Source: Candidatus Uhrbacteria bacterium CG10_big_fil_rev_8_21_14_0_10_48_16 (GTDB lineage: Bacteria > Patescibacteriota > Patescibacteriia > UBA9934 > GWF2-40-263). Taken from it: a stretch of DNA of 60,675 nt. The position numbers and the translations under genes were made by a program. Below are positions 18,614-34,068 of the stretch, one piece after another. The stretch is from the NCBI GenBank assembly GCA_002793515.1, contig PFEU01000008.1, positions 73,952 through 134,626 of the forward strand, given 5' to 3'. Position 1 is the first letter of the stretch. Each line of letters starts with the position of its first letter. Below the pieces are notes generated by a model. The model ran no database searches. It saw only the letters and a list, made by a program, of their open reading frames with translations, and was not told the origin of the DNA.

Positions 18614-19726
18614 ATGAGAATCGGTATCGACACCAGAATGTTGGGTCCAACAGTGGGGGGTGGCGGTCTTGGAAGGTATGTTGAAGAGCTTTCTCATGAA
18701 CTCTTACAACTCGACCACAAGAACCGCTATGTTTTGTTCCTGAAAAAAGAGAACTTTGAGTCGATTCAGGGGGATTGTGAGAAGCGTCTTGCGGACGTGC
18801 ACTGGTACACCGCAAAAGAGCAACTAGTTCTCCCGAAACTGATTGACCAAGAGGGTCTAGACCTCATTCACTTCCCTCACTGGAATGTTCCTCTCCGATT
18901 GCGAACACCATTTGTCGTCACAATCCATGACCTCATTCTTCTCGAAGAGCCACGATCAGCAAAAGCAACGACCCGACACCCGCTTATCTACGCCCTAAAA
19001 TACCAGGCCTACCGATTCGTCCTTCGATCAGCCCTGAAACGATCACGTGCCATCATCGCCGTCTCTGAATACACCAAGTCTGCCATTTTGAACCATTTCC
19101 CCTGGGTCCCATCAGAAAAAATTCATGTCGTCTACGAAGGAATCACAAACCTATCCTCGCTCCAACCCTCAAACACATCTCCGAAAAACGCTCCCTACTT
19201 TCTCTATGTGGGAAACGCCTATCCGCATAAGAATCTCGAAAGTCTCCTGCACGCCTTCTCGTTCTTTCATAAGATTCATCCAGAGGTTCAACTCATTCTC
19301 GCGGGGCGCGACGACCTTTTCTATCAGCGTCTCAAAAAAGAACTTTCCGAGATCGATGTTCACCCAGAGGCTGTTACATTCGTCTTGAACCCAACGGATC
19401 AAGAGCTCGCTGACCTTTACCGAAATGCGACCCTCTACCTCTTCCCTTCTCGCTCAGAAGGCTTTGGCCTTCCTCCTCTTGAAGCGATGAGCTTCGGCGT
19501 TCCCGTCGCGGCTGCACGAAGAACATCTCTTCCTGAAATCCTAGGTGAGGCCGCTCTCTACTTCGATCCAGACGACATTGAAGACATGGTTGCAACCATG
19601 GAACAGGCCCTGACAGACAAACCTCTTCGTGAACACCTGACCCAAAAAGGACACGAACAGATCAAACGCTACTCATGGAAAACCATGGCTGATAAAATAC
19701 TCGAGATCTACGCATCCTGTGCCTAA
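18614..19726 (+). CDS. Glycosyltransferase family 4 (mannosyltransferase-like)
   Basis: YVGNAYPHKNL, FPSRSEGFGLPPLEAMSFGVPV. Confidence 0.92.
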   Translation: MRIGIDTRMLGPTVGGGGLGRYVEELSHELLQLDHKNRYVLFLKKENFESIQGDCEKRLADVHWYTAKEQLVLPKLIDQEGLDLIHFPHWNVPLRLRTPFVVTIHDLILLEEPRSAKATTRHPLIYALKYQAYRFVLRSALKRSRAIIAVSEYTKSAILNHFPWVPSEKIHVVYEGITNLSSLQPSNTSPKNAPYFLYVGNAYPHKNLESLLHAFSFFHKIHPEVQLILAGRDDLFYQRLKKELSEIDVHPEAVTFVLNPTDQELADLYRNATLYLFPSRSEGFGLPPLEAMSFGVPVAAARRTSLPEILGEAALYFDPDDIEDMVATMEQALTDKPLREHLTQKGHEQIKRYSWKTMADKILEIYASCA

Positions 19727-29716: not shown

Positions 29717-30583
29717 TCAAACCACCTTGCGGTACACCGTTTCAATCGCCTGTTTTACTTCCCGTAACGTCACCTGCTTCTTCCCTTTTTCATTCTTGTG
29801 ACCCCAATTACGGTCCAAGCCAAACGTAAATCCTCCAAAGCGCTCAAATAACTGAATGGCATACGGAGATTCTTGAACATAAATGAGGCCTCGACCGTGT
29901 TCAACAATAATCATGGGGGTAGGTTTCCCAATTTCCTGGACGACAATCCGAGACAAACGAGGACGTAACTGAATATCAGCTCGTGTGCTAATAACGAAAA
30001 ATTCACGCCATTTCTTTTTTCGATCCCACGCCGATTTGGCAAGTTGTTCTTTACGAGCCTCTGTCTTTGGATTGTGCAAATGGGCAACGAGAGAATCGTG
30101 AAATGCCATCACGTCTTGAATTTCTTCCTTTGAATATCCCTCGTCTTGAAGCGCCCACACATATCCTCGATCTTGAATTCCAATCCCTCGAACAAGTTTT
30201 GGCTTATATCCCCATGTTGTTAGTTGCGCATCGGTCACCTTAAACATCTTAAGAAATTGCTCAAGCGAACTTGGAAGAAGTTTCCCATGCTCATCATGTG
30301 CCCGCGAAAGCCCCGTGTAGTGATGATGGTCAATCACATCGAGTTTCACCCCCATCTTTCTCAATTTCTTTTCTGCTTTGAGTCCAGGCATCTCAACCAC
30401 AATCACACGGGAATACCCCCCATCTTTCACATCCTTCACATAATCATGCCCTTTATCCAAAGAAGATCCATGAAACTGTTTGGACTCAATAATAGGAAGT
30501 CCGAGCTTCTGTGCAATCTGCTGAATCATCACAGCCTCTGCATCGTTTGGGGGAATGATTAAAACCGTTTTCTTATATGCCAT
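29717..30583 (-). CDS. DHH-superfamily phosphoesterase, NrN-like
   Basis: Motif string ND-A-E...VVE...IDHH...SSLEQ...QDRGY...GYSKEEI. Confidence 0.65.
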   Translation of the reverse strand: MAYKKTVLIIPPNDAEAVMIQQIAQKLGLPIIESKQFHGSSLDKGHDYVKDVKDGGYSRVIVVEMPGLKAEKKLRKMGVKLDVIDHHHYTGLSRAHDEHGKLLPSSLEQFLKMFKVTDAQLTTWGYKPKLVRGIGIQDRGYVWALQDEGYSKEEIQDVMAFHDSLVAHLHNPKTEARKEQLAKSAWDRKKKWREFFVISTRADIQLRPRLSRIVVQEIGKPTPMIIVEHGRGLIYVQESPYAIQLFERFGGFTFGLDRNWGHKNEKGKKQVTLREVKQAIETVYRKVV

Positions 30584-30723
30584 ACAACGGCATTATAGCA
30601 AGAATACACACGAATGGTCGTTCTCGGTTCCTGTCCACTCAAACTGGACAGGGGTTTTGTGGAGAAGAGACTTTAGAAATTTCATCAAACCGATACACTT
30701 AATGAAGAACCTACCAGGAGACA

Positions 30724-30858
30724 GTGCCCAGGAACTGCTATGAATGGATAAAACTGGATGGTGCCAAGGTACGACGAGTCAGAAAAAAGGAGACAACATC
30801 CTTTTCTTACGAGGAACTCTCCTCGAACCGGTCCCCGGAGGATCCCATGGGTGGCTAA
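30724..30858 (+). CDS. Small protein, 44 aa (MPRNCYEWIKLDGAKVRRVRKKETTSFSYEELSSNRSPEDPMGG)
   Basis: GTG start 3 nt after AGGAG; own terminator at 30886-30914; below the ORF-track cutoff. Confidence 0.5.
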   Translation: MPRNCYEWIKLDGAKVRRVRKKETTSFSYEELSSNRSPEDPMGG

Positions 30859-30885
30859 CCCAACGCCGACTCTTTCCGAGTCCCT

Positions 30886-30914
30886 ACCGATCTACGCAGA
30901 TCGGTTTTCTTTTT
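30886..30914 (+). terminator. Intrinsic terminator after the 44-aa ORF
   Basis: ACCGATCT-ACGC-AGATCGGT followed by TTTCTTTTT. Confidence 0.7.
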
Positions 30915-31043
30915 ACACAAAAACGGCTATCAAGGATTGCCGTTTTTGCCTCTCGTGCTCTTCCTGAATACACGAGCAAATCTTGAACTCAGGAAGAGTA
31001 CCCCAGTGCGTGAGCGTGTTCTGAAGTCTCTTCCCCTTTGCAC

Positions 31044-31280
31044 TTATTGGTGCGTGAGAGGGAAGATGTCTCTCTGAAGCCAAACGGCCTCATCGAGAAA
31101 CTGCTGAATCAGCGAGTCCCCGTTCTTGCGAACGCGGGCCCATTCGATCAGCTGTGCGAGCGTACCGGCACGCACCTTCTTCTCATCGTCCTGCAAGGTG
31201 ACCTGCGGGTCAGCGAGAGTGAGGTACGAATCACTTCCCTCTGGGAAGCACCGGACGACGAGGTAACTCGGATGCGCCAT
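31044..31280 (-). CDS. Small hypothetical protein, 78 aa
   Basis: AAGGAG five nt before ATG; GC-rich third positions. Confidence 0.6.
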   Translation of the reverse strand: MAHPSYLVVRCFPEGSDSYLTLADPQVTLQDDEKKVRAGTLAQLIEWARVRKNGDSLIQQFLDEAVWLQRDIFPLTHQ

Positions 31281-31559
31281 GGATTCTCCTTGAGGTTGAA
31301 TTCCACTCTCTTGCGACCGACCGCGACAAGCTCATCGATCGAAAGGGAGTGGAGCAGGACCTCGGCGACGTTGATTCGCGTTGGTCCCGCAGGAGAAAGG
31401 GAATGGATGCCTGTTACCTCATCCTTCACACAACGAACCCCACAGCAGTGGTCTTCGTTGGATGCTCTTACTAAACTTCCATCACTCGAGGCGATGAAAT
31501 AGTTAGTGTACCGACGTCCCCACGCCGGAGTTTTGAGCAACAGCGTCTTGCAACGATGT

Positions 31560-32338
31560 CATTCACCACCTATCAGTGATGCTCACTACAGGAACACGAT
31601 CAGATCGTGTTAGGCGCGACCAGAAGAGGTCGCCTCACAGGATGGCAGACCATGGGGGTCTGCTTGGACAGTCACCTCCTGAATGAAATCTGCTGACCGA
31701 CCAAAGGGTGTCCAGCCCTAAAGTCGGAAGGAAGGCCATTCACGATCCGTAGATCGATCTGGCGACAGACTTGTCTTGCGTAAGAACACGGTCTGTCAGC
31801 GTTCCGAGACTCTTTAACGAGCCCACCTTCGGATGAGGTCCCCTTGCATAGGGGCTGTCGATAACTCCACGTCCGCCGACGCAGAACGACACAACACTCA
31901 AGTCTGGGTCTGCCTCCCATATTTGTGACTCAACGAACGAGCCACCTCTGTACTGGGTGAACGGGGGGTGTCTTGTCCCGCTCTTCCAACCATCACTATG
32001 CGTCGTTGCCAGCAACACATAGTTTGGCCCCAGGGATTTGACCCCTCTGAAGACACGGCTGGGGTTCCGTATCTCAGATGGAATCAAATCTCTGGGGCAA
32101 TAGGCCCCCAGACTCATTTCTCTCTTACTTGTCGGAAGCGAAGCGTCCGACCTGGTTACAGATAATTCGCTTCAAGTCCTTTGACTTGGGAATTACTGCC
32201 AGAGTGCCGTGAAAAGACGGATAACGCGATATATTGCGATTTTTTCTACGATATTCAGGGGCGTCTTTTAAACAAACAGTCCAGAATGAGAGTTATTTGA
32301 ATGTGATGTACTTGTTTGTTGTCTCTGACATGAGTCAA
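31560..32338 (-). ncRNA. Candidate large structured RNA or very long structured leader; boundaries approximate
   Basis: Downstream of a consensus promoter; at least 10 hairpins in 31593-32151; G-U pairs and a cUACGg loop fit the minus strand. Confidence 0.5.
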
Positions 32339-32344
32339 CCCAAT

Positions 32345-32373
32345 AAGCTATCATGGATAGAAAATACTGTCAA
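32345..32373 (-). promoter_or_regulatory. Sigma70 promoter, leftward
   Basis: Minus strand TTGACA-N17-TAGCTT with TG extension. Confidence 0.65.
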
Positions 32374-32491
32374 GGGTTTCTGGATCGATATTTAGTATTT
32401 AGCTAAATATAGCTAAAAATAATGTTCAAAGTGAGCGAACATATAAAAGCCTAGAGAAATACTGTTGGCTCATATATCTGTCTATTAATCC

Positions 32492-32520
32492 TTGACATTG
32501 AGACGAAAAGCTGTTATAGT
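32492..32520 (+). promoter_or_regulatory. Sigma70 promoter, rightward
   Basis: TTGACA-N17-TATAGT with TG extension. Confidence 0.75.
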
Positions 32521-32526
32521 CTGTTG

Positions 32527-33035
32527 TTCTGTAAATCTGACGACGTGGGTGCACAAGTGCCCAACCGTCCGCCAGACAGACAGGGAGCGGACCATGAACG
32601 GATGATGTAAAAGTCGAAAGACAAGATCGAAACGACCTGAAATACGGTCGACATCGCCAGTTCATGGCCACAAGTTTTTAGTCACCCCCAACCCAAACCA
32701 GGAGAAATCAATTCCATAACCCAACAGAAGTCCTCTTCAAACGCCAATCCACCCTGGATTCGGCCCAGATCAGGACTCTTCACGTTCGACGCCCGAACAA
32801 CGAAAGGAGTTCAAGCGTCAACATGGTCTCCCTGAGACCATCGTACGAGACAAGGATGCGTACGGACGTGTAAATCTGTTGGGAGGTGGTACATGGGTGG
32901 CTAGCCCGCGCGCGTTGATCCCGGGTTCCGGATGAGCATCTCGCTTGTCCGGACCCGGGGGAGCCGCCTACCCTTCTCTACAGAACACACGACCTTACGC
33001 GAGCCGACTCCACGAAATGGGTCGGTCTTGTCTTT
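32527..33035 (+). ncRNA. Candidate ~500-nt structured non-coding RNA; boundaries approximate
   Basis: Promoter at the 5' end, terminator-like hairpin 33004-33035, multibranch helices, GAAA tetraloop, no ORF of 60 aa or more. Confidence 0.55.
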
Positions 33036-33169
33036 ATAAAAGAGAAAAACACATCGTCAGGAACCGCTAAACGAGATGAGATGCGCCGTCCTGGAAAGAA
33101 AAAATTGCCTCATCGTACCAATACGTACGTTGAGGCAATTTTTTCTTGAAGGACAAGCAGATCACTCGT

Positions 33170-33925
33170 TTAGCGGTTCCTGTAGGGATCGACACGACAG
33201 ACGGCCCATGAGGCATTAAACAAAACACGTGCCATCTCCGCGAATGTTTTACTTTCAATAATCACGGTCACCATCTTTCCAACGAACTCCACAAACGCCA
33301 CGCGATTCTCATAAATCCAGATCTCTCCACTAAACTCTCCAAACTCTGGAAGGAGCCGACAGTACTCTGCATTCTTTCGCGGGTTTCGAAGTTCTCCTCG
33401 ATGAAGCATTTTGATCTTTACCCGAGAATCATCTAGCGCTTTACGCGCATCGAGTAACATATTCTCATCCATCCCCTCATACACCACATCAATGTTTGCG
33501 AGTTCTAATAACTCTTTCGGATGCACGGAAACCAGATCGGTAAACAACGCATAAATCGCTTCACGCCCCTCAAAAAATCGCACCGTAGGACGTTCCCCTC
33601 CTGACATCATCTTCATCTCAACGAGAGACCGAGAAAACGTATCAATCCGTTCCTCAAGATCATGCACGCGACTTTTAAAATACGCGACTGCTCGCTCAGG
33701 ATCTTCCGCACTAAAAAATTTCTTCTTCCCTCGCTCAAACGTGGACATAAGTCCTCGGTCCTGAAGACCCGCAATCACATCGTACGTTGCCGTTCGAGAG
33801 AGTTTGGCGTGCTTGGCAATTTCTTGCACGGACGTCGGACCAAGTTTTAAGGAGGCGAGATACACACGAGTCTCTGTGGGAGAAAGTCCAAGCTCGGTAA
33901 GGAGCTTCATGAAATCCATGGCCAT
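33170..33925 (-). CDS. TrmB-family transcriptional regulator
   Basis: LGLSPTETRVYLASLKLG...IAKHAKLSRTATYDVIAGLQDRGL HTH; C-terminal EIWIYENRVAF...IIESK sensor-like domain. Confidence 0.88.
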   Translation of the reverse strand: MAMDFMKLLTELGLSPTETRVYLASLKLGPTSVQEIAKHAKLSRTATYDVIAGLQDRGLMSTFERGKKKFFSAEDPERAVAYFKSRVHDLEERIDTFSRSLVEMKMMSGGERPTVRFFEGREAIYALFTDLVSVHPKELLELANIDVVYEGMDENMLLDARKALDDSRVKIKMLHRGELRNPRKNAEYCRLLPEFGEFSGEIWIYENRVAFVEFVGKMVTVIIESKTFAEMARVLFNASWAVCRVDPYRNR

Positions 33926-34068
33926 ACAAAATACATTTCTACGTTGAGCACTTTTAAATACTGTTTGTAAAGTAAGTGTTAACAGTATAGCAAGGAAAAC
34001 TCACAGAACAAAAGAGCCATGAAGATCAGAGCGATCAACATGACTCATTTTGCGTGTAAACACGTTAT

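Follow-up and report, generated by a model that had tools for sequence, protein, structure and literature searches.

What does a genome keep in a stretch that holds no long open reading frame (ORF) and that stays beside the same regulator gene in one relative after another? The question is raised by a locus of Candidatus Uhrbacteria bacterium CG10_big_fil_rev_8_21_14_0_10_48_16 (contig PFEU01000008.1), of which we analysed 60,675 nucleotides (nt), referred to as the window. The gap at 30584-33169, between a trmB-family gene (33170-33925, minus strand) and the gene of the predicted DHH phosphoesterase p288, is the sole long stretch of these 60 kb without a long ORF, and it contains a unit (32527-33036, plus strand) which adjoins trmB and converges on its 3' end. 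An earlier inspection of the letters alone (the sequence-only reading) had proposed that this unit runs from promoter to terminator, contains no protein gene and encodes an undescribed structured RNA. With a probability that we put at about one half, the unit is a real, independently transcribed and uncatalogued structured RNA gene that engages ribosomes and serves as a translation-coupled riboregulator of Uhrbacteria and related Patescibacteria, the RNA probably linking its folding to ribosome binding.

A promoter-to-terminator unit kept beside trmB

Using TrmB as the query, we retrieved contigs of Candidatus Uhrbacteria and Patescibacteria in which the gene order IleRS-TrmB-gap-p288 is kept and in which the gap measures between 391 bp and ~9.9 kb; these related loci are referred to as L001, L002 and so on, and the window sequence as WIN. 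Even the minimal gap of 391 bp (L002) still holds the unit, which, judged by comparison of these loci, is conserved in groundwater Uhrbacteria beside a TrmB-type regulator gene and is always convergent with its 3' end. The G+C content of the window gap is 0.50-0.58 vs ~0.45 in the flanks, and a value above the background of a low-GC genome is a classic sign of structured RNA. Since the 2587-bp gap is 100% identical across 10 independently assembled contigs, it is not an assembly artefact; no microvariation among near-identical strains was found across the gap in these 10 contigs.

The unit is delimited by the following elements.

32492-32520, plus strand: sigma-70-type promoter TTGACA-17-(TG)TATAGT, with 11 of 12 consensus positions and an upstream TG (consensus scan)
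32526-32531, plus strand: conserved 5'-proximal motif GTTCTG
33003-33036, plus strand: intrinsic terminator, hairpin 33003-33026 followed by a T-rich tail (consensus scan)

A promoter of the form TTGACA-N-TGnTAnnnT is found in the same orientation, 370-780 nt from the TrmB stop codon, in 19 of 39 loci, and GGTTCTG follows 6-8 nt past the -10 box in WIN, L001, L006, L007, L015, L018, L022, L023 and L024; from the sequence, we infer transcription to start at ~32527. The terminator stem sequence CCGACyCC...GGGTCGG is common to L001, L005, L006, L008, L015, L018, L023 and L026, a conservation across many loci that is unusual for a terminator. The unit therefore shows the features of a stand-alone transcription unit with predicted transcript ends, namely -35 and -10 boxes spaced by 17 nt and a G+C-rich hairpin followed by a U-tract, both kept in relatives. 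Together with its recurrence at the same place in relatives and the lack of a conserved peptide (see below), this bears out the proposed promoter-to-terminator unit without a conserved protein; the unit is also divergent from a leftward transcript and adjacent to trmB, as the sequence-only reading had it.

The plus strand folds at -206 kcal/mol, whereas dinucleotide shuffles give -155 ± 7.7 kcal/mol (z = -6.7) and none of 100 does as well, thus the structure exceeds chance; the minus strand is stable too, if to a lesser degree (z = -4.85). In L001, with a TrmB 89% identical to that of the window, the same promoter-to-terminator unit is present (fold z = -4.3), its ends aligning with the window and its middle having diverged past recognition. 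This middle part of the RNA evolves very fast.

With regard to protein, no plus-strand ORF of ≥ 30 amino acids (aa) within 32527-33035 is conserved, and six-frame tblastn of the window gap against 55 related loci detected no conserved peptide inside this interval, on which ground a hidden or decayed protein gene there was rejected. Because of this result, the relatives cannot be said to carry an intact ORF at this place, which, like the covariation described below, favours the RNA reading. At the gathering threshold, the matches of Rfam 15 (4227 models) in the window were limited to rRNA, RNase P and tRNAs at other places; with permissive settings, 30400-33300 yielded chance matches alone, all of them outside the unit, and a scan of nine related loci found nothing in the gap. 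No Rfam family thus accounts for the unit, and a full-text literature search found no description of this RNA, in agreement with its having been called undescribed.

In L057, L061 and L062, the JGI annotation places a 'gene' over the whole unit (window-equivalent 32422-33149, plus strand), with a product of only 10 (or 19) residues. Because of this gene call with a 10-residue product, transfer-messenger RNA (tmRNA) was checked and ruled out: ARAGORN found neither a tmRNA nor a tRNA-like element in window positions 30000-34000 or in 7 loci, the Rfam tmRNA models also gave no match, and the short frames described below have a Shine-Dalgarno (SD) sequence and an AUG, whereas the tag frame of tmRNA has neither. 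A phage origin was likewise discarded, a pattern scan of viral contigs having given 3 chance matches only.

We also consider it scarcely credible that the unit is a decayed remnant, i.e., what is left of a small gene, or a leader or attenuator that has lost its gene, lying in a variable insertion hotspot and without present function. The gap, at 391 bp to ~9.9 kb, can indeed hold unrelated insertions, and the fast evolution of the RNA's middle would suit decay, but the promoter, the 5' motif, the mini-ORFs, the kink-turn (for these two see below) and the terminator are maintained at TrmB identities of 52-89%, and the unit persists even in the 391-bp gap. Moreover, the compensatory changes indicate purifying selection, which argues against decay.

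Three-codon reading frames led by Shine-Dalgarno sequences

Two reading frames of three codons (mini-ORFs), each preceded by an SD sequence, lie within the unit.

32583-32587, plus strand: SD1, GGGAG, 6 nt before the ATG at 32594, inside the loop and 3' arm of the hairpin GTCCGC/GCGGAC
32594-32605, plus strand: mini-ORF 1, ATG AAC GGA TGA (Met-Asn-Gly-stop); SD and frame sequence GGGAGcggaccATGAACGGATGA
32881-32889, plus strand: SD2, GGGAGGTGG, 3 nt before the ATG at 32893 (GGAGG core 6 nt), identical in L001
32893-32904, plus strand: mini-ORF 2, ATG GGT GGC TAG (Met-Gly-Gly-stop); SD and frame sequence GGGAGGTGgtacATGGGTGGCTAG; its codons are the 5' strand of a helix with the C-rich tail

An SD sequence followed by ATG-AAY-GGN-stop is also present in L001, L002, L014, L015, L022, L023, L026, L028, L032, L036, L037 and others. 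SD-led M-x-G-stop frames occur four times in the window, each time on the plus strand within the 2.6-kb gap, compared with ~0.5 expected for the whole window when both strands are counted. Across 47 TrmB loci, the SD+ATG sites within 1 kb past the TrmB stop codon (antisense strand) open a frame of 3-4 codons in 58 of 81 cases vs 53 of 759 elsewhere in these loci, and at least 36 of 46 loci have an SD-led frame of this length, with two or more in 18. Close relatives have MNG and MGG as predicted peptides, whereas MTG, MHG, MAG, MFG, MGT and MGGA/T/F/L/N occur in distant ones. When ATG-NNN-GGN-stop sites were collected without requiring an SD sequence, 33 of the 34 in-region sites had an SD core within 11 nt, the distance between core and ATG peaking at 4-6 nt (28 of 34) with a spacer of varying sequence. 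All three stop codons are used, TGG never occurs in their place among 13 aligned modules, and the four-codon variants (MGGA, MGGT, MGGF, MGGL and MGGN, resulting from 3-nt insertions) retain frame and stop, while the flanks, 12-20 nt on either side of the mini-ORFs, carry almost no information.

Ordinary window genes almost never have an SD sequence (a match of ≥ 4 nt in 4 of 46, with start codons set crudely as those of the longest ORF), and the SD sites of the mini-ORFs therefore stand out; they are the strongest ribosome-binding sites in the 60-kb window. In several of these genes, p288 and those that start at 18614 and 43362 among them, a TATAAT-like box precedes the ATG by 7-10 nt, which at the level of sequence suggests leaderless or SD-independent initiation. 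Taken as a sequence pattern, the mini-ORFs look as expected of functional initiation and termination sites, which would be unlikely for a purely structural motif. The sequence-only reading had mentioned two AGGAG motifs lacking a well-spaced ATG; this holds for the two motifs named, but two other SD sites do have one. Likewise, its non-coding structured RNA is upheld as to structure and not as to being simply non-coding, the two SD-led three-codon frames being the most conserved elements.

These observations bear most directly on a purely structural non-coding RNA (ncRNA), e.g., a scaffold or sponge for a kink-turn-binding protein, in which GGAGG, AUG and URR would be untranslated G-rich segments for pairing or recognition. 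We regard this explanation as unlikely. In its favour, the predicted folds engage the SD and mini-ORF segments in base pairs, the helix between mini-ORF 2 and the tail covaries, ordinary genes of this genome seldom use SD sequences, and invariant bases (CCC/GGG) also occur at the base of the 3' hairpin, a clearly non-coding part. It does not account for an SD-to-ATG spacing fixed at 4-6 nt despite the variable spacer, for an invariant ATG with an in-frame stop always within 3-5 codons, even after 3-nt insertions, or for the interchange of all three stops without a single TGG in the 13 aligned modules.

The frames also have the sequence features of a bar-type minigene: a strong SD, a start codon, at most three sense codons and a stop. 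Minigenes of this type, such as lambda bar, inhibit translation or growth by drop-off of peptidyl-tRNA, an effect that a shortage of Pth aggravates, and the unit could accordingly be pictured as a regulated minigene trap, the frames holding ribosomes or dropping off formylmethionyl (fMet)-X-Gly-tRNA(Gly) and slowing translation or growth when a TrmB-controlled promoter fires. Strong SDs, three-codon frames ending in Gly, two of them per RNA and four per locus, and a promoter region that looks regulated (two palindromes) fit such a trap. Minigenes of two to three codons, such as axe-txe (PMC8708949) and that of LEE1 (PMC3262186), take effect via ribosome occupancy or peptidyl-tRNA and not via the peptide. 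A trap, however, has no need for a conserved kink-turn domain or for a sequestered SD, and the residue at position 2 differs by lineage (N, G, T, H, A, F), so that we judge it quite unlikely.

Alternatively, the tripeptides fMet-Asn-Gly and fMet-Gly-Gly could themselves be functional products, i.e., signals or precursors for modification, with the RNA as a structured mRNA of ultra-short genes; mccA, which encodes a heptapeptide, is a precedent for an ultra-short gene. In favour of this, the frames vary mostly at wobble positions and in which stop codon they use, and each genome retains both MNG and MGG in two paralogous units. Yet the peptides drift in identity between lineages (the MTG to MGGN series above), the locus shows no link to a modifying enzyme or an exporter, its neighbours being the TrmB regulator and the DHH phosphoesterase, and codon 2 has a wobble base that covaries with a partner in the RNA, all of which makes functional tripeptides very unlikely. 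Two further candidates were rejected, as no downstream frame is conserved: termination-reinitiation into such a frame, and translational bypass from the Gly-stop in the style of T4 gene 60, which a hairpin and GGGGGAG past the stop had prompted.

A covarying domain with a consensus kink-turn in the 3' half

Downstream of mini-ORF 2, the RNA contains a hairpin domain composed of the following parts.

32910-32922, plus strand: bulged strand of a kink-turn, with C-stem GCGC, bulge GUU at 32914-32916, G32917-A32918, U32919 (3b) and CCC
32920-32959, plus strand: long hairpin, the non-canonical arm of the kink-turn (helix 4 of covariance model R1)
32957-32964, plus strand: non-bulged strand of the kink-turn, with GGG, G32960 (3n), G32961 (2n), A32962 (1n) and GC
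32962-32984, plus strand: C-rich tail, pairing with mini-ORF 2 and SD2 (folds, consensus structure and pair counts)

Covariance model R1 represents this 3' module from SD2 to the C-rich tail and was built from five sequences; a first MAFFT alignment of the module (A3) had misaligned the hairpin, yielding only 5 pairs, and was replaced by the covariance-model alignment. R1 finds ten full-length orthologous modules, and weak matches to a short paralogous unit (30834-30901). Standard pairs occupy 85.5% of the cells in the R1 alignment, which was fitted to the model; shuffles give 75%, and none of 500 attains the observed value. Both partners have changed in 11 pairs, and pairing falls to at most 60% once the partner columns are slid. 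The long hairpin shows changes on both sides in 8 of its 13 pairs, with 86.5% of cells paired, so that the long 3' stem of the sequence-only reading is now backed by compensatory changes. The CCC/GGG at the hairpin base is invariant, hence invariant bases occur in clearly non-coding parts too.

Judged by sequence consensus, the 3' hairpin sits on a kink-turn, in which GC (32912-13) and GUU are followed by G32917 A32918 opposite G32961 A32962, and these by GC (32963-64). The non-bulged strand, GGGGGAGCC, is nearly identical to the Kt-7 sequence. Nine of the ten orthologues fit the kink-turn sequence consensus (C-stem, 3-nt bulge and G.A-A.G), the exception being L018 with A at 2n and no bulge, and the C-stem covaries (GCGU/GCGC, GGC/GCC, GAGC/GCUC and GUGC/GCAC). 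The 3b.3n pair is U.G in 5 orthologues and C.C in 5, never C.G; each of the two obeys the rule (3n = G or 3b = C, but not both) under which a kink-turn is reported to fold in metal ions without protein (PMC4382518).

The domain reaches back to mini-ORF 2, the Gly-Gly codons of which pair with the tail at 32962-32972, SD2 pairing farther along it; in the covariance-model alignment (A5), the columns of this helix (21-27) pair with columns 126-137. Covariation in this helix is confined to the wobble base of codon 2 and its partner (UA 5, CG 4, AU 1), the G residues being constant throughout. Therefore, the segment seems doubly constrained, by pairing and by codon identity. In this fold, the closing helix of the kink-turn domain sequesters SD2, the start region with its AUG and the codons; as regards a riboswitch, no known aptamer in Rfam matches, and a frame of three codons would be the sole one under control.

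A possible ribosome-responsive switch and its setting

In the interpretation that we favour, the RNA has two folded domains, and the helix closing each of them would have a mini-ORF as its 5' strand. The second of these domains is the kink-turn hairpin, in whose fold the C-rich tail sequesters SD2, the start codon and the Gly codons, and ribosome binding and the closed fold would therefore be mutually exclusive. The RNA could then switch between a folded and a ribosome-engaged state in response to the supply of initiating ribosomes or of charged Gly-tRNA, or to a ligand or protein that makes the kink-turn domain more stable; its output might be its own stability, an activity in trans, or read-through antisense to trmB. 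Going further, and only tentatively, the unit may stand for a new class of stand-alone 'minigene riboregulators' in Patescibacteria, on whose fMet-X-Gly frames, placed in the closing helices of kink-turn domains, ribosomes would initiate, translate and terminate, the RNA thereby sensing free ribosomes, charged tRNA(Gly) or a ligand and signalling in trans or via antisense read-through into trmB.

Several points weigh against a ribosome-engaging riboregulator. Transcription, mini-ORF translation, the switching logic and the output are deduced from the DNA. The SD sequences, AUGs and codons are base-paired in the predicted folds, and translation might therefore be rare; an active anti-SD sequence in this organism is an assumption, as the 3' end of the 16S rRNA lies outside the window and SD sequences are scarcely used. 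Since the G residues that never vary in the Gly codons also belong to a G:C helix, part of the codon conservation could be structural, and the alignment behind the pair counts, which covers 10-13 related sequences, favours the structure of the model to which it was fitted. Downstream in cis, there is no gene except the convergent trmB and its inverted repeats, and likewise in relatives. When the ribosome footprint was held unpaired in thermodynamic modelling, the terminator hairpin remained unchanged in WIN, L001, L005, L006, L015, L018, L023 and L026; regulated termination is therefore unsupported in the window, and ribosome-controlled antitermination was rejected for the window and seven complex modules. 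Mini-ORF 2 ends 98 nt before the terminator (33003-33036). In the distant, simpler modules of L010, L031 and L037, the stop codon is 4-12 nt from the terminator stem, so that a terminating ribosome would clash with the stem.

A further weak point is the 5' half. All stems listed by the sequence-only reading were found at their positions, the long stem at 32920-32959 and the following ones of the 5' half.

32567-32592, plus strand: hairpin GTCCGC (32567-32572)/GCGGAC (32587-32592), recurring in WIN, L018, L022, L023, L007 and L024
32592-32667, plus strand: multibranch domain of the minimum-free-energy fold, its closing helix CCATGAAC (32592-32599)/GTTCATGG (32660-32667) holding the start codon of mini-ORF 1
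32604-32608 and 32651-32655, plus strand: stem GATGT/ACATC
32613-32622, plus strand: stem-loop GTC-GAAA-GAC
32633-32637 and 32646-32650, plus strand: stem CGACC/GGTCG

The GTCCGC/GCGGAC hairpin, although present, has a covariation count no different from shuffles among its six sequences, and RNAalifold gave no consensus on a MAFFT alignment of the 5' half. The multibranch domain exists as a thermodynamic prediction and is unalignable, like the 5' half altogether, even with genomes whose TrmB is 88-89% identical. What recurs in the predicted folds of relatives is mini-ORF 1 pairing 30-70 nt downstream, in differing registers, and closing a local domain; in these models, the recurring feature of the 5' half would be this design principle.

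Among known systems, the closest in plan is the three-codon upstream ORF (uORF) of the Bacillus subtilis vmlR leader, uORF(MIN), which belongs to an antibiotic-responsive attenuator and in which a ribosome occupying the tiny frame has been proposed to rearrange the fold of the RNA (PMC9226507). The unit likewise has an SD-led Met-X-X frame in a stem-loop, followed by an intrinsic terminator. Unlike leaders of the vmlR type, which lie 5' of a protein gene, it is followed by no ORF, its terminator facing the 3' end of trmB, and it differs further in carrying two mini-ORFs per RNA, in the presence of two such RNAs at a locus, in favouring Gly codons and in its kink-turn domain. With uORF attenuators in general it shares a short ORF with a ribosome-binding site upstream of a terminator, but not an antiterminator (by modelling) or a downstream gene. 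As in the two-codon minigene of axe-txe (PMC8708949) and in the LEE1 leader (PMC3262186), a strong SD and a start codon are followed by 1-2 sense codons and a stop; minigenes, however, sit inside mRNAs or phage transcripts and outside a conserved covarying fold, whereas here the frames are closing strands in a stand-alone RNA gene. The Watson-Crick C-stem, 3-nt bulge, tandem G.A/A.G and permissive 3b.3n are those of other kink-turn RNAs such as ribosomal Kt-7 and riboswitches (PMC4316175, PMC4382518), but a kink-turn is a building block and not a family, and no riboswitch aptamer or other Rfam family matches the unit. Finally, dual-function small RNAs (SgrS/SgrT, RNAIII/hld and SR1/SR1P) are also stand-alone structured RNA genes with their own promoter and terminator, a ribosome-binding site and an ORF; those known encode peptides of tens of residues, in contrast to three-codon frames paired in the RNA's own helices. 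PMC12310071 is a review of such RNAs.

Overall, this is a genuine, conserved and uncatalogued RNA, in which the idea of a mini-ORF riboregulator occurs within a stand-alone kink-turn RNA, a combination undescribed in the literature that we found. The family to which it belongs is conserved and has clear boundaries; besides a fold supported by covariation and a kink-turn, it offers a candidate dedicated regulator and candidate operators. If translated, the mini-ORFs would rank with the shortest conserved reading frames on record, and we are aware of no earlier case in which such frames are part of the architecture of a stand-alone structured RNA. They would then represent a new way of coupling RNA folding to the state of the translation machinery, and the anti-SD sequence would be kept for special purposes in a lineage that is mostly SD-less or leaderless. 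If untranslated, the RNA would still be an uncatalogued kink-turn class and a candidate addition to Rfam. To our knowledge, very little is known about regulatory RNAs of the Candidate Phyla Radiation, the organisms of which cannot be grown alone.

The remainder of the gap contains a second, shorter unit of the same kind, a leftward transcript region and two palindromes.

~30690-30914, plus strand: paralogous short unit A, divergent from p288, with a mini-ORF pair, a terminator at 30886-30905 and the weak R1 match at 30834-30901
30740-30751, plus strand: unit A frame 1 (MNG), AGGA-N6-ATGAATGGATAA
30847-30858, plus strand: unit A frame 2 (MGG), GGAGG-N5-ATGGGTGGCTAA
32402-32413: palindrome GCTAAATATAGC between the divergent promoters, a candidate operator
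32422-32442: second inverted repeat ATGTTC-N9-GAACAT, upstream of the unit's promoter

Orthologues of unit A are found in L001, L015, L018, L024 and L007. In ~20 loci, GCTAAATTTAGC or a variant with 1-2 mismatches lies 450-860 nt past the TrmB stop codon and is always followed by CCTTGACA of the leftward promoter; repeats analogous to the second one (TGTCCAC..GTGGACA and TGTACAC..GTGAACA) stand at the same place in L008, L027, L032 and L036. On this sequence basis, both palindromes (32402-32413 and 32422-32442) are plausible candidate operators for the adjacent TrmB.

The leftward transcript region (~30950-32340, minus strand; G+C 0.52-0.58) starts from a conserved promoter, CTTGACAG...TGATAGCT, at ~32345-32376. 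The region shares 70-81% identity with L001 and, over its 5' 360 nt, 70% with L018/L019; every reading frame in it is broken. To judge from its sequence, it could be either a large non-coding RNA or a leader of great length. At its end lies a 78-aa ORF (31044-31280) with a good SD, 52% identical in L001 and of no known family. In a distant clade, the leftward transcript also bears an SD-led ATGGCCGGNTAG/TGA (Met-Ala-Gly) mini-ORF, at the following places, and both arms of the locus can therefore bear such frames.

L008, 18196-18217, plus strand of the locus: leftward Met-Ala-Gly mini-ORF
L026, 5731-5753, plus strand of the locus: leftward Met-Ala-Gly mini-ORF
L027, 10131-10155, plus strand of the locus: leftward Met-Ala-Gly mini-ORF
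L031, 3298-3322, plus strand of the locus: leftward Met-Ala-Gly mini-ORF

Between the unit and trmB, nested inverted repeats at 33058-33182 overlap the last codons and the stop codon of trmB and probably form a bidirectional terminator.

33058-33075 and 33165-33182: 18-nt arms of the trmB-end inverted repeats, conserved in L001, L003 and L021
33096-33118 and 33125-33147: 23-nt arms of the same repeats, conserved in the same loci

On the other side of the gap, p288 (29717-30583, minus strand) has no sequence match in Pfam, NCBIfam or PDB, and its family comprises ~280 members, all annotated as hypothetical proteins of Patescibacteria. Its predicted fold (predicted local distance difference test, pLDDT, 88) is that of a DHH/DHHA1 phosphoesterase, with the SAM-AMP nuclease NrN, PAP phosphatase and NrnA as the best structural matches. 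A functional tie of p288 to the RNA was rejected, as this fold has no obvious connection to peptides or ribosomes. In L004 (10751-12392), the gap between TrmB and p288 harbours two small ORFs that resemble, by eye, a RelE/ParE-type toxin-antitoxin pair, together with another small ORF, and the gap thus also serves as an insertion hotspot.

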